This document shows, one piece after another, positions 1-61,100 of a stretch of DNA of 64,000 bases. The DNA is from Bilabrum cf. latius. Lineage: Eukaryota. The stretch lies in the NCBI GenBank assembly GCA_965178125.1, contig OZ237763.1, positions 620,001 through 684,000 on the forward strand. The letters are read 5' to 3'. Under the pieces are notes generated by a model. It saw only the letters and a program-made list of their open reading frames with translations, had not been told where the DNA came from and made no database searches. The first letter of the stretch is position 1, and every line of letters begins with the position of its first letter. A program made the translations under genes and the position numbers.

Positions 1-3000
1 TCTCTTTTTATTGCCATCAGCGTGTCGTTCGGGTCATTCGTGGTGAGGCGTAGACACAGACGGAGAGAGCCCAGCTATGCGTCCTGCTGGCTGTCGCCGA
101 TCGCCGGCAGCACCGACGTGAATCCGAGTCGTCGAATCGAAAGCCATTTTTGTACGTTCATTGCATCCATCGGATCAAAAAGCACCGCAGGAGGTAGAAG
201 CTATCATGGCAGGCAGGGCCACGTCATACAAGCTTGCAAGGGCCGGCTTGATGGATGAGTTGAGCTACGTTGGGAGCATATGGCTGGTCAACATTCCCAT
301 CACGGCGATGACCACACTGGTGTTGTCGCTCTGCGTGTACTTCATGGTCGGCTTCGCGCCCGATGCGGACAGGTTTCTCTTCTTCTGGCTGATCACCGCC
401 TTCCTCGAATTCGCCATGCAGGGCGTCTTTCGGTCCATCACCTTCGCGACGCCGACCCAGCAGCTGGGCCAGACCATCTCCAGCGCGGTCACAGGCGTGT
501 TTCTCATGATGGCAGGCTTTCTGGTGACCCGCACCAATATCCGCGACTTCATGCGCTTCATGTTCTACCTGTCTCCGTTCAGCTGGGCCATCCGATCATT
601 GGCCATCAATGAGTTCTTCGACGAGCGGTACGATGACCCGGTGCAGATCCAGGGCGGACCCATGACACCCCCAGGGAACAACACGCCCGCGGGTACGATG
701 CCCTCTCCTCCATCTAAGCGCGATGCTTTCCTGGACGTGTTCGACTTCTAGCGCGACCCCAAGGCAGAGTGGCAGTGGAGCGCGATGGCTGTGCTGACTG
801 CCTACTGGATCCTCTTCGCAGTCGTGCTGTCCACGCTGGCCGTGACCCACTGCAAGTACGACATCGCTCCTGGCACGCAACGTATCCACGACGAGGAGAC
901 CCGCAAGGAGATGTCTCGCCAGAGGACCATGTCAAGGAGGAGCCCATCGCCCATGCCCATGGAGGGAGGCAGTGCGGCTGCAGCTGCATCCGCGGCTGAC
1001 ATCCAAGTGCGATCCCGCACCCCGACGCAGGACGTGTCCAAGACGAGCAGCATGGCCAAAGCGGCGTCCAGGTTCGAGCCGGCGGTGCTTTCGTTCTCCA
1101 ACATTACATACTCGGTCAAGGTGCCGGCGGACGGCGCCGCTGCTGCTGGTGCCAAGGAGGCCGCGAGCAGGATGCGGTCGTTCGGAGAGAAACGCAAGGC
1201 CTCGGGGTACCGCGGCGAGGATAGGACCAGCGTGAATAGTGTCGTGAGTTCCGGCCAGGAGGGCGAGGACGTCGATCTGACCCTGCTCCGGGGCATTTCG
1301 GGCGTGGCTCGACCCAGGCGCATGATCTGCCTCATGGGTGCCTCGGGCGCTGGCAAGACAACTCTCATGGACGTGCTGGCGGGCCGCAAGACCTAGGGCA
1401 AGGAGGGTGGCGATGTGTTCGTGAACGGCAAGTCTCTGACCAAGTTGCAGCGCTCAGGGCTCATCGCCTACTGCGAGCAGACGGACGACCACACGGCCAC
1501 GGACACGGTGCGAGAGGCAGTTGACTTCTGCGCACTGCTGCGGCTGGACGCTGACATGGCGCAAGACTACGACGAGCGCGAAGAGTTCGTGGATGAGATT
1601 CTGCGGCTGCTCGAGCTGGACTCGGTGAAGGGGCGGCCCGTGTCAACGCTGGCGCAGGGCGAGCTGAAGCGCCTGACCATCGGCTGCGAGCTGGCGGCCA
1701 ACCCAAGTCTGCTCTTCCTGGACGAGCCCACCACGGGGCTGGACGCCAGGTCGGCGGCCCAGGTCATGCGCGTGCTGCGGAACGTGTCAGACACGGGCCG
1801 CACCGTGGTGTGCACGATTCATCAGCCGAGCTACGACGTGTTCGCGGCCTTCGACGACCTGCTGCTGCTGGCTGAGGGCGGGCGGCAGGTGTACTCTGGG
1901 CCGATCGGTGAGCACTGCAGCGACTTGGTGCGCCACTTGCAGGAGGCCTCGCCCGTGGTGGGAAAGCTGCCCGCCCGCCTGAACCCCGCCACCTGGATGC
2001 TTACCGAGCTCGAGGCGGAGAAGAAGCGCGTGAAGCTGCTGGCTGGTCGCGCGTCCGCAGAAGACGACAAGTCGGTCGGAGCAGCAGGTGGCTCAGAAAG
2101 CAAGGTGGCCGCTGCAGATTCCAAAAGCGGCGGCAGCGCAGAAGAGAAGCGAGCAGCAAAGGCAGCAGACGATGTCGACCCCGAGTCCGCCGCTGCCCTT
2201 GCATTGCAGGCGAGGTCACCCTTGCTGTTCGAGGCATTCGAGTCGTCTCCGGCAGCTCGTGCGGTGAAGGAAGCAATCCAGCAAGAGAAGAGGCAGGCTG
2301 CTAGCGGTCCCATCGACGCCATCAGCGCCAAGCAAGGTGCCCCCAGGGAGCGCGTGGGCGAGTGGGCGAGGTTCACCGCCGTGCTGAGGCGCACCTTCGC
2401 GCAGGCCTACCGCGACACACCATTCACTGGCTCTCGCGCCATCACCATGGTGGTGCTCGCGGTGATCTTCGGGCTGCTGTTCCTTGACATTGACGTGCAC
2501 AAGGACCAGGGAACGGTGTTGTCCACGGTGGGCGTGCTCCAGACTGCGGCCACCTTCGGCGGCATCATCGCGATGATTCAGCAGGTCCCTCAGCTGTACC
2601 TGACCCGCTCCATCTTCTACAGGGAGAGGGCCTCTGGCCTGTACTCGGCTTCCTCCTTCTTCATCGCGCTCGCCGTGCAGGAGGCCGTGTTCCTCATCCC
2701 TCTAGTAGCGGCCTTTGGCACGATTGTGTACCTGCTCGTGGACCTGCGGTTCGACGAGCCGGGGGTGTTTCTGGAGGCGCTCGGCGCCCTGTACGTGGTC
2801 AGCGTGTGGTATGGGTTCATGGCGCAGTTCTTCGCGACTGCGTTCCCCAACGCGCAGATTGCTGATATTTTTGTGGGGGTGTTCCTGAACAGCGGTGAGT
2901 CGGTATGAATCGTGGCTGCCTCGTGCATGCATGCAAGCTTGCGTGGTACCTTGCCCCTGACCCAGCCCCCTGAGCACATGACTGACTGCCAGACAACCTG

Positions 3001-3422
3001 CGTCGCACCAGCCCAAAAGCTCTTTCCCCCCTGATCCTGTCTTTGGCCTATTTATCGCAGTGAATCTGTTCAATGGCCTCTTTGCCTCTGGTGTGCTCAA
3101 CTACAGCGAGACGTTCCGCTGGATCGCGTACATCAACCCGCTCTTCCTGGTCAACGTGCCGCTGTCGCTGCCACAGGTGCACTGCTTCGAGGCTGGAGAC
3201 GGGGCGAGCGAGGAGGAGCGGATTGCTGCTGGGTGCCCCACCATTCCTGTGCTGAGGGACGGCCAGCTGCAGATCCAGACGAGCGAGGGGTTTGTGGAGG
3301 ACCTGCTCGACACCACGTACGACCAGAGGTGGAAGTACTACGTGGCGATCATTGGGGTGGCGGTCGTGTTCCAGCTGCTCGCGCAGCTATTGGCCACGCA
3401 CGTGAGTTTCTAGAAGCGCTGA
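1..3422 (+). CDS. ABCG/PDR-type full-size ABC transporter (5'-partial); introns 43-190 and 2895-3060; in-frame TAG (Gln) at 749, 1394, 3411
   Basis: TMD1-NBD2-TMD2 in one frame. Motifs: Walker [34 protein letters not shown]. Ends HVSF-TAG-KR-TGA, matching the PDR C-terminal consensus (N/S)FQKR. Confidence 0.93.
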
Positions 3423-3779
3423 GCGTGCTCGATCTGGCGTGGGGTCGTGGTCTGGCCGTCGGCTTGATGTAGACAGATAGGCGGGTGGGTGACCACCGGC
3501 TGCCGGCGTGATATAGACAGGATGCTGCCTGTAGCTGACGGGGGCCATGGGTATCGGCTGACACCGCTCGACGCGCTTGAGTCTTGCTATGTACTACGTA
3601 GATTAATCTTTGCTCAGATCAAGCATATTTCTAGCCGCGGCCCCGCGAAGGCGAGGTTCGCTGCCACAGGTTCGATCGGGTTCCTTCGACTCGGGTGGCG
3701 GCCGAACGTCCGGCCGCTCGGTGAAGCTGCTCACGGCTGCCAGTTCCAGCCCGTGTTGGAGCCAAGGGCGGTCGGGAAA

Positions 3780-4886
3780 ATGTCCAAGGGCGACCATCTC
3801 CAAGTGGAGCAGGCTGCGATGAATGAAAAGGTTCAAGCAGCTTCAAGCAAGCAGGAAGCCGCGCTCAAACCGAAGGATGGCCCGATGAGGCCCATTCTCG
3901 TAGTGGCTAGCCTACTTCTCTTCGCCCCGCACGCAGCAATGTGCGTATGGAAATACTTCGATACCGTCGGAAAGCCTTCTGCTTTCGCTGGAACCCCAAT
4001 TTGGGAACCAATCGTGGGTTCGATTCTGTACGCGTTTGTCGTCTTTGGTGGTCCGTGGGCTATGCGGACCTTCCAGGTGCCAAGCTTGCCGATTCGAGAG
4101 CTCATGCTTGCATACAACATGTACGAAGTGGTTTTGAATGGCGTTGTAGTAGCAATGTGCGGCTACGGCCTCTACGCCCACGAGTCGCAGCCGTTTTGGG
4201 GTGGAACCGTTGATAACTCTGCCGCTGGACACATGATTGCGTACGGCACGTGGCTGCACTACGTTTCGAAGTACATTGAATGCTTGGACACGGTGTTTTT
4301 CGTGCTGCGGCGCAACTTCCGATTCCTCTCGCCGCTGCACTGCTGGCACCACGCCATCATGTGCTGGCCCTGGTGGTGCGCTGCCGTCTACGCGTGCGGC
4401 GGAGACACGTGGTTCGGGTGCGCTCTAAATTCCGGCATCCACGTGCTGATGTACACGTACTACGGGCTAAAGGTCGCGAGGAACCCGATCACGAGCAAGC
4501 TCCAGATGGGCATGACGGTGCTGCAGCTGGTGCAGTTCCTGGCCGGGCTCATCCACGCGGTGTACTTGCTCAGCCTGACCCCGGAGGTGTACCCCAAGTG
4601 GATTACCACCCTGGAACTACTCATCATGGTCAACATGCTCATCATGTTTGGGCAGTTTTTCGCATCCACCTACTGCAAGGGCAGGGACAAGGGCAAGGGC
4701 AAGGTGAATGGCAAGGGGAAGAAGGACGAGGAGAGCAGCGAAGCACCTGCTCGGGTGCAGGGCGAGGAGGCACTGGCGCAGCAGGTCAGGTCGAGTAGCA
4801 AGCCGAGAGGAGGAAGGAAGGTTCCCTCTTCAAGTTCCTCCGGCCTGCGGAGCCGACGGGCCCCTCGAGAGGCGCAGGAGGACTGA
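3780..4886 (+). CDS. ELO/GNS1/SUR4 family fatty acid elongase
   Basis: KYIECLDTVF, LHCWHH histidine box, NSGIHVLMYTYY and TVLQLVQF motifs; multiple TM segments; TGA stop. Start chosen at ATG 3780. Confidence 0.92.
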   Translation: MSKGDHLQVEQAAMNEKVQAASSKQEAALKPKDGPMRPILVVASLLLFAPHAAMCVWKYFDTVGKPSAFAGTPIWEPIVGSILYAFVVFGGPWAMRTFQVPSLPIRELMLAYNMYEVVLNGVVVAMCGYGLYAHESQPFWGGTVDNSAAGHMIAYGTWLHYVSKYIECLDTVFFVLRRNFRFLSPLHCWHHAIMCWPWWCAAVYACGGDTWFGCALNSGIHVLMYTYYGLKVARNPITSKLQMGMTVLQLVQFLAGLIHAVYLLSLTPEVYPKWITTLELLIMVNMLIMFGQFFASTYCKGRDKGKGKVNGKGKKDEESSEAPARVQGEEALAQQVRSSSKPRGGRKVPSSSSSGLRSRRAPREAQED

Positions 4887-5257: not shown

Positions 5258-7179
5258 TCACTCATCTTGCTTGGACAGCCACAAGAGCGCAGTGTCGTTG
5301 CCGGCCACTGAGGCGCTGACGCCTCCCGTGGCGGGCGATAGCGTCTTCTGCGAAAACACGTCCACGACAGACACCGTCTCGCCCGTCGCGAACCCGAGCG
5401 ATGTCCAGCAGTCGCCCGAGCACTCGATGGTGGTGTTTGCAGCCAGCCCTCGGTTGAAGAGGGACACGGCGGCACCACCACCCGACAGCTGCCTGCCCCA
5501 CACCTCAGCACGCTGTGTCCCCTACGCACTCGCACGCACCCGCAGAAGTGCCGCTCTCGCCTCGCGGTCCGGGTGCTGCTCCAGGATCGCCTCGGGAAGC
5601 ACGCCATTTGCGACCATCACCGCGTCGTATTTGGCCAGCCTCCCCGCCGTCGCCAACCGCTCCGGGGTCACACCGGAGCCCACCGCATCGATGGCTGCAG
5701 CCAGCCTGGCCGAATCTTGTTCCCTGGCTTCGGCGGGGAGCAGCCTGGATCCCGCCTGCCTCTTGTCGTCCTGCGAGATGGCCAGCACGTACCGGTTCCG
5801 GAGCAGTCCCAGGGCCTCGGCATCGAACGTCCTCGGGTCCACGGAGATGAGCAGCTTGGAGTTCATCATCAGCCAGAGGGCCAGATGGGACCGCTGCTGG
5901 GCCCGCGTGAGCTCGGAGGAGCCCACGAGAAGCAAGCCCGGGTCATTGTAGCCGCAGTCCATGGGTCCGCTAGCGTCAGACACGCAGCCAGAATACTGAC
6001 CGAGGGTGGCACCCACGTCCGCGTTCACGAGGATGGGGCCCCACCCGCCCCCGTCATCCTCCGCTATCCTCCACTCGTTGCCCAGGGACCGCCCGATCGA
6101 GGCCACGGTCTTGCCCGCCCCCCAGCATAGGTTGAAGAGAACTGCCTTGCCCGTGGCGTTGAGTCCATCCCGCATCTTGGCGTACTCCTGAGGGGCATCG
6201 GGGAGGCCTCCGTTGTTGCACGAGTCTTCCTTGAGGTACTCTCCGCCCACCGATGCGAAGAACTTCGCGTCCTAAGCCTCGTGACCGCCCGACCCCGGGC
6301 GCTTGAGGCCCCCGGCCCAGCAGCTGCACGTGTAGTGCCTACGAGTGACGAGGTGAGAAGAGGTGAGGTGAGGTGCCATGGCAAAAGTGGGCCAACACGG
6401 AGTCGAGGTAAACTCGACGCTATCCAGGGGCGAAAGAAAGTGAGGTGTAGACAAAGCACATCGCGCGGCTACTATGGTAGATTAAGCATAGAATACAGGT
6501 CTTGATACTATACTAGTAGGCCTACCAGAGCACCGACTAGGGGCCATCAATGTCGCGCTCACCCTCGATCAGTGTAGAAGCCCGCTCGGAACCCCAGCTT
6601 GTTGAGTTGTTGCGATACCGCGAGCATTCCGTTAGGAAAGGCTTGCTGGTCGGCGATCAGATTGCCGTTGGAATCACGGCCCTGTACGATGCAGTCGTCG
6701 TAGTTGAAAAAGATGGGCGACATGGCACTTAAGTGGTCGCTGCGGGCAGCAGCCGGCAGCTCCCCGTCGGGCACAAACAGCTGCTTCTCCTTCATAAATT
6801 CTGCTATCTTTACCGAGTCCTCCCCCATCACATATCCTGCAGGCACGAAGTAAGCAAGCAAAGGCAATGTTTGGTTCGATCCGCAGCTCGTCTCTCCAAG
6901 GCACGTTATCACCGATGCATGCACTGCCTCACCCTTATCCCAAGTGTAATTTGGATATGTTAGATGTGAATGAAGCATATACCACGTCTGCATCGTGGCG
7001 TTGGCGAATTGCAGTGTTAGCAGTGTGTGCACGACCGAACGCTTCGTCTTGGATCGTCAGTGGGATTATTGGCTCACGTTGGCACCGAGGCTTGGTTTTG
7101 TAAACCCATTGGCCAAACCATGCACATGGACCAACTGAAAACTGGCAAGGAAAGCCAAGGCCCTCAGCTGTTGCCGCAT
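5258..7179 (-). CDS. GH27 alpha-galactosidase (secreted); introns 6988-7077, 6837-6932, 6339-6562; in-frame TAG at 6272, 5522
   Basis: Signal peptide then LANG..PSLGANTW, YDDC, FPNGM, YTDRGHYTC, GSGGHEA*DAKFFA..EYLKEDSC, WRIAED, YNDPGLLLVG, EVWGRQLSGG..VSLFNRG; TGA stop. Confidence 0.9.
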
Positions 7180-7733
7180 GAGGTTAAAAGTATTTCTATG
7201 GATCGCCCGAAAGTGCAACTGCTAATTAACGAACCTTCGGTGACAAACAATTCATGATCAGGTTACAACCGCTGAGGCGCGATGCACGAAGCAGATCACG
7301 TATATTGCGCGTTTTTGGCCGCCATGATGCGCGCAATTAGGTCTATGTCGCGCGTAGCTCGTGCTGGATAGTTTGGACGCCTGTCTAGGTGAGATCAATC
7401 TGGGAGGGGGCCTTCCTGGCGAAGTCTGCTCGCCACAAAGTCGAGGGTTGTTGGAAGCCTTCCGGCTGCTGCTGTATCTGCGCCAGCTATCGCCCACTGT
7501 TGGCTTCATGTAGCATTTTATTCATCATTTATCGTGTGTTTATGTGCGATGAATGCTGCATGAGCTGGATTGCGACTGCGTTGTCATATTTCATCGATCC
7601 CCCGGATGCTGGGGTTGTTGTCGGTGTCTCGGACCTTCAAACCTTCACCCAATAGCCAAGAGAGACGCGTTGGTATATTGATGAACATGAAGATTAGTTT
7701 TGCGTCGATCGACCGCCCTTTTCCTCCCGCAGG

Positions 7734-8832
7734 ATGGGCGCGAGTACCCCCGTTGCTTCCGTAGGAGATTCTCGTCGTGGCATGGCTATGTCGCTGCAGG
7801 ACTGTGAGACCCAAACGTGGTATGAATTGCTCCAAATATGAAAGAGGTATTGCTCGCGCCCATTGGAGGGCCAGACCCGAGTTTGCCGTTGATTTGGAAG
7901 CCGTTTAGCGAGTGGTCCAGCGCCGCAAACGTCCCACCGCCCCTCTTCAGAACTCCCCCGAACATGCACCCGCAGTGAGCAAGCGAATCAAGGCCACTAA
8001 GAACGTAGCAAAGCTGACAAACGTGATGAAGCTGGTGGCCTCTGCCAAGCTCAAGGCAGTGGAGCAGGCCCTCGCCGAGGCCAAGCCCTTCGGTGCCTCC
8101 CTCATGGAATCTGTGGCGCACCCCGCCCTTGAGATCGAGCCCGGCAGCGACGAGCTCCCTCTGGGCGAGCCCGTCCCCGGCTGCAAGCGCCTTGTTGTTA
8201 TCATGACCACGGACCGAGGGCTCTGCGGGTCGGTCAACTCATCGACCGTCAGGTACGCCAGGAACTACCTCGAGCAGAGGCAGGCCGCCGGGGAGAACAT
8301 CTCCCTTTTCATGCTCGGAGAGAAGTCCCGCGCCCAGCTGGCCAGGGATTTCCACGACGTCAGCGTGCACGCGATCGACCAGTGCTTCGACAAGGACCCG
8401 ATCTTCTCGATGGCCTCGTCCGTCGCGGAGAGGATCCTGCAGCACGATTTCGACGAGCTGACCATCTTCTACAACGAGTTTGTGAACGCTGCCTCCTTCA
8501 ACAACAGGCAGAGGACGTTCTCTAACATGAACAAGCAGGAGGACGGCGCCGAGATCCCCGAGCGGTTCGAGGGATACGAGTTCGAGCCCGAGCAGCCCGA
8601 CGTGGTGCTGCCCAACCTGATGGAGTACTCCGTGTCGGGGGCGCTCTTCTACACCATGCTGGAGAACCAGACCTGCGAGGTGTCCCAGCGAGTGACTGCC
8701 ATGGACAACGCCACCACCAACGCGCAGGACATGGTGGACAGGTTTACGCTCATGTTCAACAGGGCGCGCCAGGCCAAGATCACCACCGAGCTGACAGAGA
8801 TCATCTCCGGTGCAGAGTCCCTGGAGCAGTGA
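7734..8832 (+). CDS. ATP3: Mitochondrial F1 ATP synthase gamma subunit; intron 7804-7975; true start may lie further upstream
   Basis: Spliced MAMSLQDLSKRIKATKNVAKLTNVMKLVA, TDRGLCG, QRVTAMDNATTNA, FNRARQAKITTELTEIISGA; no TAG; TGA stop. Confidence 0.93.
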
Positions 8833-9165: not shown

Positions 9166-10243
9166 ATGGCTTCTAGTAGTGCAGCTACCGGTGGTGCAAG
9201 TGCCAGTGGGTCTTCTGAGGAGTATCAGGGCGTCTCGGCGATGTCTTTGAGCGGTTTCGGAAGGTTCTTTCCGTACATGCGTGAAGAGCGCTACCCCAAG
9301 CACCTTGCCGTAAACTTCAGGAATTTGAAGGTAAGTCGCATATTCACTCTTGTGTTACTCGCAAACTGCATCGAATGTTTGGCTTTGCACCCGTGCGTTG
9401 GAACGAACGCTGCTGATGCTCCAGCCGAGCATGTGCAACTGCGTGTGTCCAACCTTCCTGTTGTTGTGATCGCAGCTTCCAGCGCTTCAAAAGTACGTAC
9501 AGAAGTATAGGATTCATGTTCGAGCTGATGCTAATGCTGAAGAGTACGCGTGCGCGGTCGCTAGGCACTTCGAGAGCACTCTGGAAGTTGACGAGGACTC
9601 GACGCTTCACAGGCTCGTGAACATCATCAAGAAGGTGAACCCTTCCGTTTCCACCCCAGCAGTCGAGTTGCCCTCGGCTCGTTCGTCCGCCCGCGCTGCT
9701 GCAGGAGGCGCGGGCGCCGGCTTGGTGGGCGGGCATTCGGAACTGGAAGGCTACGCGTTGGGGTCCAAACGGAGGCGCGGTCCCGGAGGATACGACGAGC
9801 GGGGCGACTACTACGACGACATGCCGCCTGTTGAGGGACAGGCAAGCACGGAGATGGTTGCGTGCGAGCACAACATGTGCCCCAAGGAGTGGTACACGCT
9901 GCCGCAGGCGGGGCTGACGCCGGAGACCATCCCCGAGGGGAAGTGGTACTGCCCCGATTGCCGGCTCGACCCCAACGACTATTCCAGGGGAAGGCAGATT
10001 CCGAGAAGTGAGACACGTTGCCCCCCACTTTCAGCCGAGCAGTGCTCAGTTCGAATTATTGTGATTTCGGCTCGCGATGCTACCGATTTCAAGCTTTCTG
10101 CTTGCCGCCCAGTCCTTGTTGGCCTACTTATTATCGCTCGCGCACACCATCCTATCTCCGCAGGTTTGGAGGACAAGAACCGTGGACGCAGCCGAAAGAG
10201 GGTTCGGCAGGGACACCCAGCCAAGCGCAAGCGCACGCGATGA
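9166..10243 (+). CDS. SAP30-like Sin3-binding domain protein with a partial ING-type PHD finger; introns 9331-9475 and probably 10008-10163
   Basis: Spliced VNFRNLKLPALQKYVQKYRI...AVARHFESTLEVDEDSTLHRLVNIIK resembles the SAP30 Sin3-binding domain. EMVACEHNMCPKEWY...GKWYCPDC resembles the second half of an ING PHD. Basic C-terminal tail. Confidence 0.7.
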
Positions 10244-10431
10244 TCATGTCTCGCACCGTGGGTGCGTAAGAGTTGTGTGTGCATATACTCATTCATGCGG
10301 ATGGTTCAGCTCATGCTTCGATAATTCCAGCAAAATGACACAAACAACCCGGACCTACCCGGAACTCAAATCTGCAGCAACACGTTCTGGCCACAACTAT
10401 CTTTTCTGGTTGCTATACGAACACCGTAGAC

Positions 10432-12573
10432 ATGCACGCTCATTTGCTTGCGCTGTGTGTCATTCTGTGCGTGTCTTCCGCGTTCGCTGCGATCGGCTCT
10501 AGCGGGCCTGGGTAGGTCTTGGCAAGTGTCACATCCAGGTACTGGCTCAACTACAGACACACGACGGACAGCGGAGTGTTCAATGATATCGTTTCACTTG
10601 GAGACTCAAGCATGGGCTCAACCAGCTCTGGCTCCCAGTCGTTCGCGAACTTGCTCGCTGGCGACGAAGGTGCCAGCCCCAGAAACCCGTTCCCGGGTGC
10701 TGCATCATTGCCGACGGACAAAAGCGGCAGCGTTGCTCCCACCGCACGTATATGCGCATCTTCTGCCCAGGCTGCCTCGTCTGTATGCAATAGTCGAGCT
10801 GGTGATGCCGTGCACATGGACGCAACTCTCGCCTTCCTCTCAGGCCGGGCGTCCTTTCATATCCAATCCGGCGCCAGCCCCTCGTCTCACTGGATCACAT
10901 CGCTTTAGAGTAGTTCTAGATATGGATGGCGTGATCCTGCGGCAGCAGCTGCCTACATGCTTGCAAAGGGGCGATCCCACCCACATGACCTGCTCGCCCA
11001 AAGCTAGGGCTCTCCGGATGCCGACCTGCTCGCTTATTGGAATGGTCACGGAGGAGATGGCTTCCTCAAGTTCAGAGATTGGGAAGAACTAGCGTCCGAA
11101 GAGCTGGGCCGAGCGGTGGTGGAGGGGCGCAGGCGGGGGATGCACCGGAGGTCGGTGCACTGGCTGGATACCTGCCAGGCGGCCACGCTGGCTGAGGGGA
11201 TCCACGCGTTGCAAGCGCGGACGAGGGGCTTGTTGAGACTGCCAGCTTCTATAGATGCCTCTACCAGTGGTGAGGAAGATCGAATTAGATTTCGCGGCAA
11301 GGGCGCGCGATCGGTGGGATGGTTGCTAGGGGGGATGCTCGCTCGCTTGCGTGCCGAGGCGCGCGGGACCGGATCTGGGCTGCAAACCAGCAGTCTGTCC
11401 TATCAAAAGGCAGGAAAGAGAAAATCGAGGAACACGCATCAGTGGACGTGGTCCTCCGTGCAGGCGAGCACTTCTGCCCGTGGCCTCAACTCGTACTCGA
11501 GCGGGAGGGACGCAGTCACCGGGCTCTCTCTCTCCGATGGTTTCGCTGCCTATGGCATGAGAGGACTGCAGCAGGAGGGAAGGAAGCTGATGTAGAGCAA
11601 GAGGGAGGCGATGAAGGCGGCCATGCAGCTGCTGCAGAGCCAGTACTAGTACCAGTCTCAGCCTCATCCTCCGCTAGGGGCATCAGGGCACGGAGCTTAC
11701 CTGCACAATGATGATGCTGCAGCCGCTGGCTCAGTCCAGCGCAACGCAACCGAAATCGCGGCAACCGCCAGAAAACTCAACGGATACGTACAGAGATCCC
11801 GCGCTCTGCCTCCGCCCATGCGGCTCGGTTAGCTCTCGGAGCTCGCTCCAGAGCAGCTCATCCAGTCACAGATGGTGTACAGCAGCACGGGGGCGAGGCC
11901 TTGTTCCCCCCCACAGCAGCAGCAGCAGCTGCAGTAGGATGGGCGTGGTGGTGGGAGCAATGCTACCATTGACCAGAGCCTCGGTCCGGAGTCTGGATGC
12001 ATGGGGGCGGGGCAGGGAATCGGCTTTATGTTAGAGTAGGTGCAGCGGTGGGGGGAGAGATTCGTGGAGGACCCAGATGCCGTGGCAGAAGAGCTGCTGG
12101 CCGCCTTTGGGGAAGACCCCGTGGCTGTGGATGCGGGCCTCAGGGCGCTGTACCGACACGGGATGGACAACAAAGGCAGGGGGGTGGACGAGGCCGAGAA
12201 GCGGGCGAAGGGGGCATCGATGGATGGGGTGCTGTTCGGCAGGCAGGGTGTCAGGGTTCTGGGCGCGCGATATGGGGCGGGGGAACATGAACTCGCTGGC
12301 AGTGGCGCAGAGCTGAGGCCTGCTAGCAGAGAGCGTTGGTCAGCTGTGGCCTCGGAGCAGGGCTCGAGGGAAGGTTCTGCCTCGCAGGAAATGGGGATTT
12401 GGTCTCAATCGAGGGCAGTAGAGTGGATGCAGAATCAGCAGGGGATCTGGGACACTCGTGCCCAGGGTGTGCCGGCGTGGCTTTGGCTGGACGGGTGGGC
12501 CGGGTTTGGGTGCAAGGTGGTGGTCTGTGCGGCAGCTGCTGCATGTGCATCCGGATTGGCTAGTCGCCTCTGA
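10432..12573 (+). CDS. PIGK: GPI-anchor transamidase catalytic subunit (PIG-K/GPI8-like, peptidase C13); 8 in-frame TAG (10513, 10906, 11005, 11593, 11647, 11830, 11935, 12037)
   Basis: One frame with signal peptide, SRYWLNYRH, GHGGDGFLKFRDWEE (catalytic His), DTCQAAT (catalytic Cys) and a C-terminal hydrophobic segment; only continuous if TAG is read as sense; TGA stop. Confidence 0.82.
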
Positions 12574-12713
12574 TTGCGTTAAGTTTTAGGGCTGGTAGTG
12601 GGACAGGGAATGGTTTTGGAATCCGGATATTGGGAAAAAAGACACACACCTGGCCTTGTGGCTGTGTATCGCCTGGACAAGTCAATCGATCCGGAATCCG
12701 GACCGACCCGAGC

Positions 12714-14495
12714 TCAGTCCACAAGGGAGGGTCCGCCGCTGCCTGCCACTGCAACGCGGTCCTTTACCTCGGCATCACCTCTGCTGCCTTTGCCATCACC
12801 TGTACCTGGCGAATCGCGCCGCTCCTCCCGGCTGTCCCCACGCCGCTCCTCACGGCTGTCCCCACGCCGCTCCTCACGGCTGTCCCCACGCCGCTCCTCA
12901 CGACTGTCCCCACGCCGCTCCTCACGGCTGTCCCCACGCCGCTCCTCACGACTGTCCCCGCGCCGCTCCTCACGGCTGTCCCCGCGCCGCTCCTCACGGC
13001 TGTCCTCACGGCTGTCCCCGCGCCGCTCCTCACGGCTGTCCCCGCGCCGCTCCTCACGGCTGTCCCCGCGCCGCTCCTCACGGCTGTCCCCACGCCGCTC
13101 CTCACGGCTGTCCCCACGCCGCTCCTCACGGCTGTCCCCGCGCCGCTCCTCACGGCTGTCCCCGCGCCGCTCCTCACGGCTGTCCCCACGCCGCTCCTCA
13201 CGGCTGTCCTCACGGCTGTCCCCGCGCCGCTCCTCACGGCTGTCCCCGCGCCGCTCCTCACGGCTGTCCCCGCGCCGCTCCTCACGGCTGTCCCCACGCC
13301 GCACCTCACGGCTGTCCCCACGCCGCTCCTCACGGCTGTCCCCGCGCCGCTCCTCACGGCTGTCTCCACGCCGCTCCTCACGGCTGTCCCCGCGCCGCTC
13401 CTCACGGCTGTCCCCGCGCCGCTCCTCACGGCTGTCCCCACGCCGCTCCTCACGGCTGTCCCCACGCCGCTCCTCACGGCTGTCCCCACGCCGCTCCTCA
13501 CGGCTGTCCCCGCGCCGCTCCTCATGGCTGACCGCGCGCCTATCGTCCTCCCTGTAGCCGACGCGCCTATCGTCCTCCCTGTAGCCGCCGCGCCTATCGT
13601 CCTCCCTGTAGCCGCCGCGCCTATCGTCCTCCCTGTAGCCGACGCGCCTATCGTCCTCCCTGTAGCCGCCGCGTCTATCGTCCTCCCTGTAGCCGCCGCG
13701 CCTATCGTCCTCCCTGTAGCCGCCGCGCCTATCGTCCTCCCTGTAGCCGCCGCGTCTATCGTCCTCCCTGTAGCCGCCACGCCTCCAATCAACCCTGTCA
13801 TCCCACCTCCCCCTGGTATCGCGGCTGTACCTATCACGGGGTGCATACGCATAGTCACGCCGCCCCCTGTCGTCCTCGGCTCGCCGATATGAGCCCCCGG
13901 ACGCAGATGACTGGGAGTAGGCTGGCCGGGCCGGCCGTCGGTCCTAAGAGCTTGCTCTCGGTCTACCAGATGCTGTCCCGCTGCCTGAAAGCGATTTCAT
14001 CTCTTCAGCACTCTTTCTGCCTCCCTTTGCCCATTGAACAGTGAGAACACGGCTGCGAAAGATGTGAGAGCGTCTGAGTTCATTGCAGATTGCCCGGAAT
14101 ACACAAGCAGCCAACTTACGCATATCCTGAGGCACTCACCCACGAAATTCCTGCCCATCCATGCCCTTGAGAGCCAATTCTGCCTCTTCACTTGTCGCAA
14201 ATTCTACGTATCCGAACCCACGAAGCTGCGGCTACAGATAAACACAACGCTGCAGAGGACTTGTTGGACTGGGCCAACCTTCCCCTTTTGTATCAATTTC
14301 GTCCCCGAAAATTAAGTAGTAGATCAATATGCACCGACACATTCTCACCCGGTGGTTCCGTACATCTCGAGGAAGGTGAATGTCAGACACGGAACCAAAC
14401 TTCTTAAATGTGTCCATGACATCCTCCCTGGTGGTTCCGCGCGGAATAGGGCGGACGTGCAGCGAGAATGCCTGCTTAGCATTTCTTGCAGACAT
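12714..14495 (-). CDS. RRM splicing-factor-like protein (SRSF10/SCL-like) with long Arg/Asp/Glu repeat tail; introns 14226-14348, 14053-14139; in-frame TAG at 13944
   Basis: SLHVRPIP, FKKFGSVSDIHLPRD, RNP1 RGFGYVEF, LTVQWAKGGRKSAEEM, followed by YREDDRRGG and RRGDSREE repeats; TGA stop. Confidence 0.85.
12817..13523. repeat. 24-bp coding tandem repeat, roughly 29 copies (encodes RRGDSREE on the minus strand)
   Basis: Unit CGCCGCTCCTCACGGCTGTCCCC(A/G) read directly; two 12-bp half-unit interruptions preserve frame. Confidence 0.95.
13535..13778. repeat. 27-bp coding tandem repeat, 9 copies (encodes YREDDRR(G/V)G on the minus strand)
   Basis: Unit CTATCGTCCTCCCTGTAGCCG(C/A)CGCG(C/T) read directly. 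Confidence 0.95.
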
Positions 14496-16616: not shown

Positions 16617-16682
16617 CATCATGTCCCAGGCGGCTCAATTGCTGCAGAGCCACTGGCAGCACATGCGCTGGCCTCGCATGCC

Positions 16683-25776: not shown

Positions 25777-25890
25777 ATTGATGTTTGTGACAGATTCCTG
25801 CGATATTTCGACGACCGCCGGGTGAACTGTATGATATGGTTGAAACACACAACAAAATGTGGATGATTGGTAGTTGGAGCCGCGTTCTTC

Positions 25891-45495: not shown

Positions 45496-48400
45496 TTAAC
45501 CTTGCACGTCGGCAGCATCCATTTCGTCTACCTCTGCAAATATGCCGTCCACCTGTGCCCGCAACCACTCCCTCCAGGGCTTCGTGCTGAGCTGCTTCTG
45601 CAGCTGGCTCTCCACCTGCTTCCTCAAGTCACGGTATGTGGGCAATTCCTCATCTGGGGTCTCGCTGGGGATCTACAGGATGATATCTCGCAGCACGCTG
45701 TGCACTAGCCGCAGCTCGGCACGCGTCGTACCAGGAGGCGCGGGCTTTGACGAGTCAAAGGATGAGGGCACCGGGCCCGTGACGGTGCTGGCACTTGACG
45801 CTGGAGCATGCGCCTGGGCATCCACGACACCGCTACGAGAGGCAGGGTCATGCAGACCCAGCGCCGACGCTCCCCCAGGCACACCGGGACCACCTGCAAG
45901 AGTCGCCTGCTGCTGCTGCTGCTCTTTCGCGGTACCGTCCTCGCTGCCAGTCCTGCTCTTGGGTGTGTCTACTGAAAACAAACCCTCCAGGTTGATGGCG
46001 TGGCCCGGTGTGGCGCCTGGAGTGGGCAAGGTCAGCGAGGGGTCGGTGCTGCGCACCAGGCCCACGCCAGCACCACCACCGACAGCGCTCGACTCCCTCG
46101 CATCAGAATTGCCCGCCTCAGAATCGCCACGGTTTCCCTGCTGCTCGTCAACCCGTTTGTCTCCGAAAGCACCCTACTCGATTCCAACCACAGATCCGAT
46201 CAGTCCAGCGGCAGTCTGCGCCTCCTGCTCCGACTGAAAGCACAGATCTACCCCGCCTGATGCCGCGCCGTCCCTAGTCTGCAGCACCACGCATTTACCC
46301 GCAAGCATCGACATCTTGGTTTGCACAGAACCGCGGATCAGCCGCAGGGCGGCTTTACAGCGCGCAGGTTTCTTCACCTGCACGCTGATTATGTCGCTAA
46401 GCACGACCCGACGGGCACTCGCTTCGCTTCCTTGCTGTGCGCTTTCTAGCCCGGTCCCGCTGCCTACTGTAGCTGCACCTGCCTGATCGGGCGCGCGGGC
46501 TCCCAGCTACCAATAGACAGCGTCGCCCGGCCTTGCCCACAGAGCGCCCATTGAGAAGCGAGTGTCTGCTGTGGCCGCCTTCATCCCGCACGTGCACACA
46601 ACTGGTGTTGTACGGTCCGATGTGCCGTCCTTGCCGTCGATGCCCGCGTGAGAGGAGGCAGCCAGGGCGCTGGAGGTTGCATCGGCCCCGCGCTGCCCAT
46701 CGCTTGGCCCGGCGTTCTCCCGACCCCGTTCTCCATCTTCCTCTGGGCTCCCAATGTCCAGCACATCCGTGTCCAGGCTGTCTGCGTCCCTTTCTCCTTC
46801 TGCCCAGCCGTCCTCGGAGCTGGCTGCCTGGCCCTTGCTGGCACTGCCTGGCACACCACCGTCAGCACTCCTACGACTATCACCCGCGCCGACTGCAAGA
46901 GAGGCCGCTGGAGCAGACACGCTGCGGTTTCCTGCTATCGCGCCTCCCTCGGGGAACACCAGCTGCACGAGTGGAATTTCAGCACCAGACGCTTGCGCAC
47001 CATCGACCGGTGCCGCGGCAGTGGACTGCAGAACAGACGTCCGCATGGCTTCTGCTGACGACAGCACCAGTCTGGCAGCCCTGAGAGCATCTCGCACAGC
47101 CTCCGCTGCTTCCTCTCTTGTGACGGCCTGATCCTCGCTCTCTGCCTCATGCTGCGCTGCCTTGGCTTGCCGATCTAGCGCCTCCAATTGCGCCTTGATG
47201 GCCCTGCATTCGCCCTCCAGGGCCTCTACCTCCTGGATGTCCTTCCTGGCCTCGGCTTGCATGGCTCTGGCCTTGCCCTAAGCATCGTCTCTGCTCTCCC
47301 GAGCCTGCCTGGCGGCTTCTAGGGATCGATCCAGCCTCTGCCTGCCCTCTGCCAGGCGCTTTTGCTGCACGCCCCGTTTCTTCTCGGCATCTTCCAGCTC
47401 GCGGCGGGCGTCGTCTCGCTGTTTCTGTGCTTGCTTGCGCTGCTCATCTGCGGCAGAAGTCTCTCGCCTTCCTGAGGATGCCTCTGCGACGGCTCGGGCG
47501 GCCTGCATCGCAACGTCATCGGCCTGTTTCCTAGCCTGCTCCTCATCACGAGCGGCCTGCTGGGCCCCGGCCTTGAGCCGAGCTATCTCAGCCCTGAGAT
47601 CTTCCAGTCGCATCGGGCTAGAGGCACTAGAGGCGCGCTCCTGCGCCTGGTGCAGGCTCTGCTCGGCCTCTTCCTGGGCCTGAGACAGCCGTGACAGTGC
47701 GACATCCCTCCGGCGAGCGGCTTGCTCCATCGACTGCCTGGCCCTCTGCAAGTCCTTGCCCAGCGAGGCCTCTGCCTGCACCAACTTGGAGTCCTCCTGG
47801 TCGAGCTGTCGGGCTGCCTGCGCGGACTGCGACGCCTGACGCCGCGCCTCGGCCGCCCGCTGCGTGGCCACCTCTGCCTCCCTCTCCGCCATCCCCGCTT
47901 GTTCCCTGGCCTCCACCAGCTCCCTCGCCTTCTCCCTGTACTTGGCCCACCGGTCCTCCAGCGCCTCCCGCCTCTTCTTCAGCTCGCCTCTCTGCTTGTC
48001 CAGGTGCTCCTCCAGCGCCTCTACCTCTGCCTCTGCCTGCTCCACCATGGCGCGCTGCTGCACGCGCCGCTCCACCAGCACGTCTGCCTCCTGCCGCCCT
48101 GCGGCGCTGGCTTCGCGGAAATCGGCCTCGGCCGCGGTTACCCCAGCGAACTCCAGCTGCAGCTGCCTCCGGAGCTCGGCTGCATCGGCGGCCCTCTGCA
48201 GTACCTGCCTCGTCGATGGCTCCAGGCTCCAGCCGTCCGTGAGCACAGCGGGTGGGACTGCAAGCGAGCGAACGCCCGCCTGCTCGCTGCCTTGTTCCCT
48301 GACGCCGCTCGGCATAGCTCCCTGCCTATCTGCGGCGCAGTTTCCAATCGATACATCCGGTGCCTTTGGCTTGCCGTGTGAGACTCCTGCAGCGTTGCCC

Positions 48401-50082
48401 TCGCCCTTGTGATCATCATTGCCAGCACTGGGGGTTTCAGCCCCTCCGCTTGCTCGATCTGCTCCCAGCAGGACCAACAGCGAGGCCGCCGCAGCCTCTC
48501 CGCACCTCTGGTTGTCCGATAGATCCACCCGTCGAATGAGGGGCAGGGCGCCTTTTCTGAGGCCCTCCAGCAGAACCACGGCTGCCCGGTCGTCCAGGGC
48601 ACATCCAGAGAGATCTAGCTGCTGCAGTGCACTGCCGCTCTCAGCCTCGGCCGACGCTTTGGCAGCACGGCCCGATGATTCATCTGCGTCGCTGATCTGG
48701 CTGCTGAGCAGCGCCTTCATCCCGTATGCCGTGAAGCCGCACCCGGACGAAACCTAGAGCGAGTCGCTGGAAATGCCCGCGCCGGGGCGCGATACCCGGA
48801 GCAGCCCCGAGGCGCCGCTCGCTTCCAGAGCCTCCGATATTTTGCGACCAGTCCCTCCGAGCAACTGCCTCGAATCGCCGCGTGCTCTGCTACTGGGGAC
48901 CATCGCTCCAGTCTGTTCGTTCCCATGCGCCTGCGCCTGCGCCTGCACCTGTGCCTGTGCCTGACCCCCGAGCAGCAAAGCCTTCAGGGACCCGCTGGCT
49001 CCCAAGAGCGCCCCCGCCGCCTCCATGGCCCCGTCAGTCAGGAAGTTGTCGCGGAGGTCCAGCACCTCCATTCGGGGGCACCCGTTGATCGCGGCCGACA
49101 TAACGTGCGCGGCGCCCTGGTTCCGCAGCATGCAGCTGGCGACCCGCAGTACGGCCAGTTCAAGCGCGTCCTGGAGGCCATCAGCGAGCGCACGCGCGCC
49201 CGAGGGACCGATGGAATTGCCCGACAGGTCCAGCACGCGGACTGGGGAGGACCGTCCCTGGGATCGGATCGCCTGTCCCAGGGCGGCGGCGCCCTGCGAC
49301 CGGATGAAGGAGCGAGCAAGGAGCACTTGCTCGAGGGAGGGCGCTCCCTCCCGCATGGCAGCGGCAATCGCCCTGCAGCCGCTGTTACCTACCGGGTTCC
49401 CATCAAACGAAAGCAGCCGCAAAGACTTCGAGGACTTGATTGCTGCAGCGATGGCCACAGTGCCTGCTGGTCCGATGTCGTTCAGGGACACGTCGAGCGA
49501 GGTGGTGCCTGGCATCGCTTCCAGTGCCGCCCCCACAGTGCGCGCTCCACGGTCCCACAGGCCACAGCTCCTCAAATTTATCGACTGTCCTGGAAAGGAT
49601 CCTACGGATTCAGCCGATTGGGCGCTTTCATTGATCTGTCGTATCACTGCAGGATCAAGCTGCCCGGCAGCTCTCAGCTCACCTACCGTCGGTGGATCGG
49701 GTAGGGTGCTCAGGGCTTGACTGTCAGAATGCCTAGTACCTGGATGTTGCATCATGCTCGCACCTATGATTCGCTCGCCTGGTAGGGACAAATCTGAGCT
49801 CACTATGGTGTGCGACCCAAAGCTAGCTTGTCGCAGGCCAATGCTGGGGGGATTTGGCGGCTCTGCAGGACGCCACCTCTGATTGAATCCCAGATTAGAA
49901 ACCGACTGTGCCAATGATGCGTCTTGGCGCGCAAACCTTCCAATTGGGCTGGTTGATCCGCGCAACTCCCGTCCGGCCCCGCTTTTTCGAGACAAGTAAC
50001 TACTCTCGTCGTATGCAGGGCCAGCGTCTCTCCCATCAATCATACTTGTATACACTGTACCATATCCCGAATCAAAGTCCAT
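45496..50082 (-). CDS. RI-like LRR + coiled-coil + PH-like + DEK-C-like protein; TAG at 48754, 47278, 46507, 46174, 45673; TAA stop
   Basis: LRRs (LDVSLNDIGPAG, LDLSGNSIGPSG), long A/E/Q/R coiled coil, PH-like LSDIISVQV..VDLCFQSEQEA, terminal TYRDLRKQVESQLQKQL..WLRAQVD; single frame. Confidence 0.75.
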
Positions 50083-50251
50083 CGGCCCTGGTTGCTACTG
50101 CGAGTACAAGTTGTGTCGCGCAAACGGAAGCCCGGCGCCGCGCGAAGTATCATGCGGAACCTGAACATTTCGGTTGGCGAACTGAGCACGTTCGCGGATG
50201 CATCATGCACCCAAGATAACGGCTAGATGCGCAAGATAAGGTAATATTTAT

Positions 50252-58199: not shown

Positions 58200-61100
58200 T
58201 CACGCTCTCGACCCGAGCGGCGCAGCCGGCGAGAAGGACGCTGCGCTCCGCAGCAGGTCCGCGCGACTCCCTGCGCGCTGCCCGGTCAGGCCACCAGCCT
58301 GAGGGCCAGGGCCCAGGCGGACCCGCACTCGGGGAACATGGGGGCTGGAGGCACCCGCCGTGGTGACGCCCCCCTCGGTCTCCTCGATGGAGGAAGTGGC
58401 AGACCCGGTGCTGGCGGCGTCTTCGTCATCCCCTCCTCCTGTTCCCTGGCTGGACACGTCCCCGTCGCTCTCCACCTCCACGTCGATGCCGTCACCCACC
58501 GAGGGCATCGCGCCGCCGGAGGCGGACTGGGGGTTCACGCGGTTCTTGTCATTGAGAGCCACACGCAGCTGCACGGCCACGGCAATCGCCGCCACCATGC
58601 CCACGAGCGCCAGCGCCGCCACCACCACGGCACCAACGAGCACAGGCGACACGGCAGAGGGGCCGGGCGCGGAGGCACCGCCGTTGGACCCGCTGCCCTC
58701 GCCGTCCTGGGAGTCGTCACCCGCACCATCGTTCCCTGCACCCTGTTCTGGCTGTTCCCCGATCTCCACGACCAGCCTGTCGGTCAGCTGCACGCCTGCG
58801 CTGGAGCTGGCCGCCTCAAGCGCAGCCTCCGCGGCGGCCCTCTGGCTTGCAGGCACGATCACGATGGAGGCCTCGTTCCCGTCACCGTCCTCAGCGTTGA
58901 GGAACACCTGGGCGTCCACGCCTGCCGCCTGCACGGTGGCAGTCAGCTGGTAGGCAGCAGCGGCCTCGGCAGTGTTGAGCGAGGAGAAGACGGTCGCGTC
59001 GCCGGTCTCGGCAGCCACCTGCACCTGCATAATGGTGAACACGCCGGCGGTGCTGGCGGCGAACCGAGATGAAACGCCCAGGGCGGCGGGTGATCCGGTG
59101 CTGGCCGAAGACACGCCGCCGCGGATGGAGGACGCAGAAGCGGCGCCGCCGGAGGAGGAGGAACCAGTGCCTGCGGGCTCCAGATCGGCCCTGGTGATGG
59201 GCAGGCGGGTGTAGCCGAAGCTCCTGGTGCTGATGTGCCTCAGGTCAGCGTCCGACTCGAGCAGGTAGGCGGAGATGCGCACGTCCCTCTTGTTCCTCAG
59301 GGAACCCACGGGCACCACTGCGATCGTCTCGGTGCACCGCTGCAGCACCAGCTGGGCGGACCAGTCGATGGAGGAGTGCCTCGTCTCGCGCAGCACGACG
59401 GTCACAGAGTCAGGGTCGAACCGCTCGTCGGAGCAGTACCGGAGGGTGAGGGCGATGGACCCGTCGGCCAGGCGGTTGGTGTCTCCCACCACAGTCTCAA
59501 AGTCCACAAGGGCAGAGTTGGTGCGAGTCGGGGCGTAGTTCGCCACCGGGTAGCCGGGGATGATCTCCGCCGCTTCGAAGGTGGGCACGCAGTTGCGGCC
59601 GAAGCTCACCTCCTCCCGGCGGGTCTGCACCCAGTTGCCCTCGCGCGAGCTGTACGTGGATAGCGCGAACCGCAGGTCGTTCTTGTTCCTAAAGGTAGAC
59701 CGGGGGCCGAGCACGAGCACCTTGGATTGCCCGTTCTCGAGCTCGACGACCTTGTTGAAGCTCACGCTCGAGTGCCTAGACTCGGACACCAGGAAGCGCT
59801 TGCTGTCCGGCCCGAACCGGTCAAAGTAGCTAACACGCACCGCCACGTCGCACTCCTCCACGGAGCGGCCGTTGTTGTCCACCCACCCGGTCCATCCGGG
59901 GGCGCGCCTGTCCTTCCAGATGGTCTCGATGCGGCCGCCCCACGAGGACCACGAATCGTACCCTTTGGTCTCCGAGGGGACGAAGGCCGCCAGGTCGCTC
60001 TCATCGCTGTAGTCGTTCGTGCAGTGCCGGCCAATGTCAAGGCTGCGAGTGGTGCGCCATTCTGCCCTCCAGGTGTCGTAGTACTGCAGGCTGATCCTGA
60101 TGTCGTTCTTATTGCGGAAATCTGCCCTGCTGCCGAGGTTCAGCAGCGTCTCCTGCCCGTTGGTCAGGGTGACTTGGAAGGCCCGCTGGATGGAAGAGTG
60201 CCTGGTCTCGCGCACCACGAACGTCCGCTTCTCGCCCTCGCAGCCAGAGGGGTCGTTGAAGGCCACGCGCACCACCACGTCGCATCCGGGGGAGCGGTTG
60301 CGGCCGTACACGGCTGAGATCGTGCCCCTGCTCCAGGTCCTCTCCACGGTGGAGCGTGGGAACTCGGCGGACACCGCGGCCGCCTCGGGGAACGTCTCCA
60401 GGTCCCTGCTGCCGAGGTCGATCGACATGCGCTGGCGCCAGTTGCCGCGGACGTTCCACCACATCGAGTCGTAGAACAGCCCGAACCGCACGTCGTTCTT
60501 ACGCCCCAGGTCCTCCCTGGAGCCCATGTCGATGATGGCGGAGAAACCGTTCTGCAGCGTTACCTGCCTCTCAACATCAACGCTGCTGTGCCTGGTCTCC
60601 CTCACGCGGAAGGTGGTCTAAGAGGGCCCGTCGGGATCGTAGTAGGCCACGCGCATGACGGCGCGCCCCTCGGCCGACCGGCGGTTGCCGTACAAGGCCT
60701 CTAGCCTGCCGCCCTGGCCGGTCACCTGGTCCCACCGGAGATCGACGGGCTGCAGCGTGGAGCGGTCTGCCTCCGGGGGCGAGCTAAGGCACTGCCGGCC
60801 GATGCTTAGCGAGCGGCACGTCTGGATCCAGCCGCCGCGGCCGTCGGGTCGCAGCATGGTGATCCTCACATCGTTCTTGTTGCCGAAAGTGGCCCTGTCG
60901 CCGAGGTCCACCAGAGCGGTTGTGCCGAGCTCCATGGTGATCTGTCTCGCGAGCGGAATGCTGCTGTGCCGGGTCTCGCGCAGCAAGAATGTCGCAGTGG
61001 GAGCAAGCTCGGCAGTATCCCCGGCGTACGACACGCGCACGATGACGCGGCAGTTCTCGTCCCGCTGGTTGTTGGCGATTGCGTACTCGAGGCGCCCCCA

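Follow-up and report, generated by a model that had tools for sequence, protein, structure and literature searches.

The question raised by a 64 kb stretch of DNA from Bilabrum cf. latius (GenBank assembly GCA_965178125.1, contig OZ237763.1, positions 620,001 to 684,000 of the forward strand; below, the window is this whole stretch of 64,000 nucleotides) is whether the codon UAG is read there as an amino acid, and if so, as which one. The original prediction, made from the letters alone, held that UAG is reassigned to glutamine across the window in a code like NCBI table 15. Our analysis bears out this core claim for the window and for one related contig, where TAG is a sense codon that most likely specifies glutamine. 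Taken together, the results make it highly probable that the nuclear DNA seen in the window comes from a GC-rich, intron-poor, aerobic eukaryote with a cytoplasmic code in which UAG has become a sense codon, most probably for glutamine, while UGA serves as the main stop and UAA as a minor one. This pattern of assignments matches NCBI table 15.

In-frame TAG codons and the length of open frames

The window has a G+C content of 62% and carries 19 protein-gene models, located on both strands, along with one RNase MRP RNA gene. In-frame TAG codons were found in 15 of the 19 protein-gene models, again on both strands, and number 62 in total, that is, 61 in 17,512 codons counted from conservative starts plus one in the last exon of a gene for an ABCG transporter. 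The four models free of TAG encode a fatty-acid elongase (ELO), the ATP synthase gamma subunit, a SAP30-like protein and a TLC-domain protein. The original prediction had counted about 65 TAG codons in 17 of 21 models. All positions that it named (749, 3411, 6272-6274, 11647, 11935, 20012-20014, 52217 and 60620) do carry an in-frame TAG, and its counts for UTP14 (four), the PIG-K-like gene (eight) and MVD (one) were reproduced; for ORC1 it gave five, and six were found from the first ATG. It was also right that the frames go on past the TAG codons. Over 17.5 thousand codons, neither TAA nor TGA nor a frameshift interrupts them. The zero for TAA and TGA follows from the way in which the frames were delimited, and the evidence consists of frame length and of homology running across the TAG codons.

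When frames are bounded by TAA and TGA alone, 18 stop-to-stop frames of the window hold 70 TAG in 17,598 codons. With TAG read through, 11 frames reach 900 codons or more, compared with 2 under the standard code, 2 when TAA is read through and 5 when TGA is read through. At a threshold of 1400 codons the result is still clearer, with 5 frames when TAG is read, the longest having 2226 codons, and none for the standard code, TAA or TGA. Among 100 sequences simulated with a first-order Markov model, the largest TAG-read frame had 624 codons; the long frames of the window exceed what chance would produce. The numbers of TAG, TAA and TGA are 61, 0 and 0 in the coding frame vs. 121, 35 and 305 in one and 118, 57 and 340 in the other of the remaining frames. 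As for the base that follows TAG, its frequencies (G in 27 cases, C in 17, A in 10, T in 6) track the general first-base usage, and hence no read-through context is visible. With 61-70 TAG, 576 CAG and 145 CAA in the codon tallies, TAG would make up about 8% of the glutamine codons.

The 19 models end in TGA (17 cases) or TAA (two cases). Reading TAA as a sense codon lengthens no gene in the window; reading through TGA leaves many frames open, none of them reaching 1400 codons, and these do not match the gene models found by homology. Neither of the two readings joins pieces of genes. If both codons stood for glutamine, the CAA:CAG ratio of 145:576 predicts about 15 in-frame TAA beside the 61 TAG, and none was seen. 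Since there is no in-frame TAA, two genes end in TAA and no gene is lengthened by reading it, UAA is not read as glutamine in the window. The data support the retention of both UAA and UGA as stops within the window, UGA being the main and UAA the minor one. No model needs TAG as its terminator, just as the original prediction stated, although this is partly circular because the frames were delimited without TAG.

Homology running across the TAG codons

Matches to known families pass over the TAG codons in five genes. The ABC_tran match of the ABCG protein (residues 390-538) crosses the TAG at residue 425, and the Melibiase_2 match of the GH27 alpha-galactosidase (residues 61-238) crosses that at residue 70. 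In mevalonate diphosphate decarboxylase (MVD), the TAG at residue 189 lies within the MVD-like_N match; in UTP14, the Pfam Utp14 match (residues 411-1039) runs across three TAGs; and the alignment of ORC1 with its Protein Data Bank (PDB) counterpart (residues 548-670) spans the TAG at residue 572. TAG is thus almost certainly a sense codon within these genes.

Relatives that share the TAG usage

Metagenome contigs were scanned with the ATP synthase gamma sequence. This yielded a contig of 2973 bases (L001) that is collinear with positions 5345-8274 of the window at 77-80% nucleotide identity and therefore belongs to another species. In the 457 codons of its GH27 gene, which is terminated by TGA, six TAG stand in frame. 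A public protein fragment of 251 residues from another source (P0278) is 94% identical to residues 81-331 of HK1, one of two hybrid histidine kinases of the window (the other being HK2). The fragment opens with the first Met that follows one TAG and stops exactly before the TAG at HK1 residue 332; being cut exactly at TAGs, it indicates that a standard-code gene call has split the HK1 fragment. If the latter TAG is conserved in the source of P0278, such borders would be the expected output of a standard-code gene caller. Public protein collections also hold a 112-residue ORC1 fragment (P0148) that is 100% identical to the window. A search for shorter relatives of HK1 returned P0278 and a 46% relative (P0279), neither of which spans a TAG, and no further relatives came from a scan of genome contigs with the leucine-rich repeat (LRR)/IQ protein or of viral contigs with HK1. 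By these comparisons, the TAG usage of the window is shared by at least one further species and by a relative that is 94% identical.

The GH27 gene of the window has an intron of about 224 bases (~6338-6561, between ...FYTDRG and HYTCSCW...), where L001 reads straight through, indicating that the presence of this intron differs between the two species.

The residue specified by TAG

The GH27 proteins of the window and L001 can be aligned over 448 residues, 333 of which are identical, and this close comparison offers eight TAG positions. The partner codon is CAG at four of them and CGA, GAG, TTG and AGC at one each. Given that glutamine accounts for 3.8% of residues, the binomial probability of at least four glutamines in eight is 1.3e-4. 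Summed over the eight sites, PAM30 scores amount to +21 for Q, with E in second place at -10; the BLOSUM80 sums are 35 and 12, respectively. At glutamine codons of the window, L001 has TAG in 3 of 18 cases, and at codons for any other residue in 3 of 428 (Fisher P = 0.001). One L001 TAG lies within a conserved NQD motif, where glutamine is present in all five displayed PDB alignments. Likewise, the TAG at HK1 residue 332 faces CAG in the paralogue HK2. The MVD TAG column of the PDB alignments, which reads Q, Q, gap, G and E, is of no help in naming the residue. All in all, UAG very likely specifies glutamine.

The family motifs cited in the original prediction proved to be of unequal value. 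In GH27, where HEA*DA had been read with glutamine, TAG70 indeed faces glutamine in three of four displayed PDB alignments and CAG in L001. For the F*KR terminus of the PDR transporter, which had been read as FQKR, 71 of 120 ABCG homologues end in the motif; 48 of them have glutamine at the TAG position and 14 have leucine, the named ones being mostly chlorophyte; only proteins of at least 1625 residues were taken here, without the ordinary-length fungal and plant PDRs, which limits this count as well as the ABCG tree considered below. At the same position, the two nearest neighbours in that tree have Asp and Ser. The ORC1 motif LPCRD*E has glutamine in human and arginine in fly, and in the alignment as a whole glutamine occupies column 572 in 11 of 150 sequences vs. 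34 with K, 27 with E and 14 with D. The LRR site TDASL*AI and the CAG-run contexts, also adduced there, do not test the residue.

For the columns of distant homologues, 149 ORC1 representatives (P0148 was dropped), 120 ABCG and 7 UTP14 homologues were used; four TAG columns had 20 sequences or more. The ORC1 search gave 4052 representatives at E up to 0.001, of which 150 were aligned; the UTP14 search gave seven matches, being swamped by low-complexity words. Most TAG sites are found at variable positions, as one would expect of a rare, recently captured codon.

Public sequencing runs

Positions 18200-25800 of the window were found in public runs of four studies; no RNA run is listed among the public runs that contain this interval. 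The DNA run X1 spans 16600-30500 in one contig with no difference; since the window could itself stem from X1, this run does not count as independent. In X5, X6 and X7, which belong to other studies, the pieces listed likewise match the window within 16600-30500 without a difference. Contigs of X5 and X7 skip three GT..AG introns (28008>28114, 28230>28319 and 29413>29675), and X1 does not. The contig that skips the MVD intron carries TAG 28893 unchanged in both X5 and X7, and this splice keeps the frame, taking two bases of a codon from one exon and one from the next. Listed pieces lie over seven TAG sites in X5 and over three in X7; neither the X5 contig over 16831-18032, in the Methyltransf_16 gene, nor the X5 and X7 contigs over the UTP14 TAG sites have any other letter. 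From these data, TAG is seen to be retained in the main form of the transcript; a rare edited form could escape notice in contigs. The spliced contigs in public runs also suggest that transcript data for this lineage already exist.

Within the same interval, two stretches of acidic low-complexity coding sequence, 19384-19847 in ORC1 and 22168-22631 in UTP14, show contig depths that add up to very high values, as well as numerous false joints, in all four runs. Both are a mapping artefact of GAC/GAG-type repeats.

Alternative explanations

Several observations weigh against a glutamine codon UAG, and they are considered here together with the explanations that they might favour. One such explanation is that the TAGs are never translated: they would come from errors of assembly or consensus, be changed to CAG by RNA editing, mark lesions of pseudogenes or belong to introns that went unrecognised. 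Nothing positive was found for it, apart from the fact that contigs would leave room for a minority of edited molecules. The kinds of the runs X5 and X7 are automatic guesses ('RNA? (probably DNA)' and 'RNA?', respectively). We reject assembly error, editing on a wholesale scale, hidden introns and pseudogenes because there are zero differences across four runs from four studies and the spliced contigs among them keep TAG; moreover, 62 TAG stand beside not a single TAA, TGA or frameshift, domains align across the TAGs, and the metagenome contig of another species uses TAG at other positions. We therefore regard untranslated TAGs as barely conceivable. Another explanation would give UAG a dual meaning dependent on context, sense inside genes and terminator near some 3′ ends, as in the context-dependent codes reported for Condylostoma and Blastocrithidia. 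In its favour, a TAG falls within the last five codons of 3 of the 19 models, and only about 0.33 would be expected at 3.5 TAG per 1000 codons: in HK1 at 32940-32942, directly followed by TAA, in the Tudor-knot gene at 45368-45370, four codons before TGA, and in the ABCG gene at 3411-3413, two codons before TGA. The end of HK1, ...TAG TAA, would permit an occasional use of TAG as a stop. The ABCG codon, however, is internal, because homologues end in F-Q-K/R-R, and no model requires TAG as its terminator. The TAGs near the ends of HK1 and the Tudor-knot gene look like former TAG stops that are now read through to the next stop, and such relics would explain the pattern equally well. A dual meaning thus seems unlikely to us.

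It is also possible that UAG is a sense codon for a residue other than glutamine, namely glutamate, leucine, serine or lysine. The glutamine call rests on a small sample, the eight sites in one gene of a close relative, and CAG is one transition away from TAG, which inflates the number of CAG partners at unconstrained sites. Glu, Leu, Ser and Arg each occur once among the L001/window partners. One L001 TAG lies at a site that is Asp in all five displayed PDB homologues and Glu in the window, another at a site with Ser in plants as well as in the window, and Leu takes the TAG position in 14 of the 71 PDR C-termini mentioned above. In distant homologues, four TAG columns (ORC1 572 and 987, ABCG 210 and 425) sum to -0.13 for K, -0.56 for Q and -0.74 for E, K being slightly above Q; with the three nearly level, these columns do not single out glutamine, and among the 20 best ORC1 representatives, glutamine stands in column 572 in two alone. 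Across the paralogues HK1 and HK2, the residues opposite TAG are R, Q, L, A, A, L, G and P, and no more than 39% of residues are identical in that half of the proteins; these pairs are uninformative. ARAGORN found no tRNA gene in the window, which does not contain an eRF1 gene either, and the Rfam threshold was reached by RNase MRP alone. According to the accessible text of PMC11687900 and PMC8271138, UAG is read as Leu, Ser or Glu in other eukaryotes. Against this stand glutamine as the partner in four of the eight close comparisons, with each alternative at most once, PAM30 and BLOSUM80 sums that favour Q far above E, and the NQD site, where glutamine is invariant (5/5). The Leu, Ser and Glu codes each have a partner in one of the eight comparisons, and their matrix sums lie far under that of glutamine. 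Another residue is accordingly quite improbable, and the assignment of UAG to glutamine is retained below.

Proposed mechanism and comparison with known codes

A glutamine codon UAG could be read by a tRNA-Gln with the anticodon CUA. Since UAG would be read and UAA would not, the anticodon is predicted to be CUA, which pairs with UAG and not with UAA. The simplest source of this putative tRNA would be a duplicated and mutated tRNA-Gln(CUG), and efficient use of the codon would need an eRF1 with weakened recognition of UAG. The stop codon may have been captured after GC pressure had turned UGA into the usual stop of the genome and made UAG rare; the near-exclusive TGA terminators of the window fit the capture of a stop codon made rare in this way. 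The argument for tRNA-Gln(CUA) and an altered eRF1 follows that given in section 9 of PMC5304391.

Several known codes resemble that of the window in part. Codes of the NCBI table 6 type, in which UAR is glutamine, are found in many ciliates, hexamitid diplomonads, some ulvophytes, Streblomastix and Amoeboaphelidium protococcarum. These share with the window a stop codon read as glutamine and UGA as the main stop; they differ in UAA, which is sense there and a stop here. In the phage 'code 15', crAss-like and Lak phages read TAG as glutamine with their own suppressor tRNAs. The codon and the residue are the same, whereas the window is eukaryotic nuclear DNA with spliceosomal introns. Ciliate genomes are AT-rich. 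Compared with ciliates, the window presents 64 kb with 19 genes on both strands, introns of 88-261 bases and an ABCG protein that groups beside stramenopile-type sequences, and nothing in it points to a ciliate.

The closest match in assignments is Iotanema spirale (Fornicata), for which the available text of PMC5304391 gives the same three meanings, UAG as glutamine and UAA and UGA as stops; the mechanism predicted there, tRNA-Gln(CUA) and an altered eRF1, would also apply to the organism of the window. Iotanema is, according to the same source, an anaerobic metamonad, whereas the window encodes a mitochondrial-type ATP synthase gamma and has 62% GC. As far as the accessible part of PMC11687900 goes, the ciliate Protocruzia tuzeti and two phyllopharyngean lineages reassign UAG alone, to glutamine as is likely here, and other ciliates to leucine. 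UAG alone is reassigned, with UAA kept as a stop, in the rhizarian exLh and in Scotinosphaera sp. too, though to a different residue, Leu in the former and Ser in the latter. UAG-only codes as covered by the available portions of PMC5304391, PMC11687900 and PMC8271138 thus comprise glutamine in Iotanema, leucine in exLh, serine in Scotinosphaera, and glutamine or leucine in Protocruzia and some phyllopharyngeans. The named known lineages do not fit the window because of its 62% GC, mitochondrial ATP synthase and TAA stops.

An aphelid origin was considered as well. Amoeboaphelidium reads both TAG and TAA as glutamine, as stated in the accessible text of PMC6299283, and its genomes have 40.5% and 39.9% GC (PMC10608142, Table 1). 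This origin was rejected, with about 40% GC there vs. 62% in the window.

Lineage, novelty and significance

In a FastTree phylogeny of 115 ABCG segments, the window groups with two sequences and next with Euglena and the labyrinthulomycete Mucochytrium. It belongs to a clade that also takes in oomycetes (support 0.885) and pelagophytes (0.995), and the chlorophytes and land plants lie outside. This gives a weak hint of a possible stramenopile affinity, drawn from a single paralogue-rich gene that was sampled among proteins of 1625 residues or more. Among the ORC1 representatives, the best ten are environmental proteins with 37-51% identity, and the named UTP14 matches are fungal (26-37%). An origin in green algae was entertained, the PDR terminus being like the VSFLKR of Chlamydomonas eustigma; it is not supported, as the ABCG protein lies outside the chlorophytes in the tree.

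A full-text literature search turned up no GC-rich eukaryote other than a ciliate in which UAG alone is described as glutamine, subscription journals and supplements being outside the search. This is probably a known kind of code in a lineage for which it has not yet been described. That it arose, as the original prediction thought possible, as an independent, unreported UAG-only glutamine code in a GC-rich, aerobic, intron-poor clade, possibly of stramenopiles and with at least three sampled members, is a proposal for which we judge the chances to be evenly balanced.

In the accessible literature, nuclear codes that split the meanings of UAG and UAA are few, with a single metamonad, rhizarian and green alga each and a small number of ciliate lineages. 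Another lineage, and a GC-rich one, would thus provide an independent data point on the decoupling of UAG and UAA. If the proposal is true, it represents stop-codon capture under GC pressure, with UGA as a near-universal stop and UAG set free, unlike the AT-rich setting of ciliates, and it would provide a system for studying how the recognition of UAG and UAA by eRF1 can be separated. There is a practical side too. Annotation of this genome with the standard code truncates about four genes in five, and public protein collections already hold fragments of this kind, such as P0278, which ends exactly at a TAG, and the ORC1 piece P0148. Until a new annotation with TAG as glutamine replaces them, such annotations will lead to wrong orthology, gene counts and phylogenomic matrices.

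Gene content of the window

The recognisable genes of the window (Table 1) are plainly eukaryotic and nuclear. Introns are short and few; the three directly seen have 105, 88 and 261 bases, and all are GT..AG.

Table 1. Genes of the 64 kb window, with positions of in-frame TAG codons or, where preceded by n, their number
Feature	Position	Strand	In-frame TAG	Terminator	Support and remarks
PDR-type ABCG transporter, 3′ part	122-3422	+	749, 1394, 3411	TGA (3420-3422)	Exon 122-2908, last exon ~3036-3419; Pfam ABC2_membrane 2.8e-46, ABC_tran 4.9e-20
ELO fatty-acid elongase	3468-4886	+	n = 0	TGA	
GH27 alpha-galactosidase, main exon	5258-6481	-	6274-6272, 5524-5522	TGA	Pfam Melibiase_2 2e-22
GH27, upstream exon		-			Past intron ~6338-6561
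ATP synthase gamma, mitochondrial-type	7975-8832	+	n = 0		
SAP30-like protein	9470-10243	+	n = 0		
Divergent GPI transamidase (PIG-K/GPI8-like)	10339-12573	+	10513, 10906, 11005, 11593, 11647, 11830, 11935, 12037 (n = 8)	TGA	PDB 7w72_K 4.7e-11
Arg/Glu/Asp/Ser repeat protein	12714-14135	-	13946 (n = 1)	TGA	
Methyltransf_16-type lysine methyltransferase	16683-18137	-	17921, 17792	TGA	Pfam 1e-08; METTL21C 8.5e-4
ORC1 (BAH + AAA+)	18215-21727	-	21625, 21568, 20866, 20014, 19408, 18769	TGA	Pfam BAH, AAA; PDB ORC1 6e-62
UTP14	21970-25776	+	22828, 23533, 24316, 24448	TGA	Pfam Utp14 1.4e-84
RNase MRP RNA gene	25885-26243	-			Rfam RF00030, 64.6 bits, model matched full-length; between UTP14 and TLC gene
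TLC-domain protein, spliced	27215-28461	-	n = 0		Introns 28009-28113, 28231-28318
Mevalonate diphosphate decarboxylase (MVD), two exons	28329-30368	+	28893	TGA	GT..AG intron 29414-29674; Pfam MVD-like_N 9.2e-55, MDD_C 3.2e-54; PDB match 1.1e-65
Protein without known family	30731-32821	-	32707, 32536, 32359, 32347, 31624	TGA	
Hybrid histidine kinase HK1	32937-37331	-	n = 9, the last directly before the terminator	TAA	Pfam Response_reg, HATPase_c
Hybrid histidine kinase HK2	37299-41825	+	n = 6 after Met53	TGA	Head to head with HK1
Tudor-knot/chromo-like protein	42149-45385	+	n = 4 after first Met, one 4 codons before the terminator	TGA	
LRR_6 (RNI-like) + coiled-coil protein	45496-50202	-	n = 5 after first Met	TAA	
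LRR/IQ-motif protein, 2226 codons	50240-56920	+	52022, 52217, 53147, 55964, 56348	TGA	
Large repeat-bearing membrane protein	58200-63998	-	60620	TGA	Runs off the window

The PIG-K-like protein has no Pfam match at 1e-3. The Arg/Glu/Asp/Ser repeat protein, which is without a family match, is the weakest of the gene models. It lies in a long tandem-repeat region (12291-14135) that is open on both strands, with units TAVP(T/A)PLL on the plus strand and REERRGDS on the minus strand; which strand codes here, if either does, is not settled. A Pfam 'Cornifin' match in the plus frame of this region was dismissed as a repeat artefact.

The C-terminal halves of HK1 and HK2 are identical at 734 of 764 residues and have three TAGs in common, and their N-terminal sensor halves are identical at 258 of 669. 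This pattern suggests a recent gene conversion or a partial duplication.

The minus-strand frame at 58200-63998 (1932 codons) gave no Pfam family at 1e-3. It contains about six repeats of some 110 residues, each with an E(T/S)RHSS motif. Cysteine-rich spacers occur as well, and close to the C-terminus a hydrophobic stretch resembles, by eye, a membrane span.

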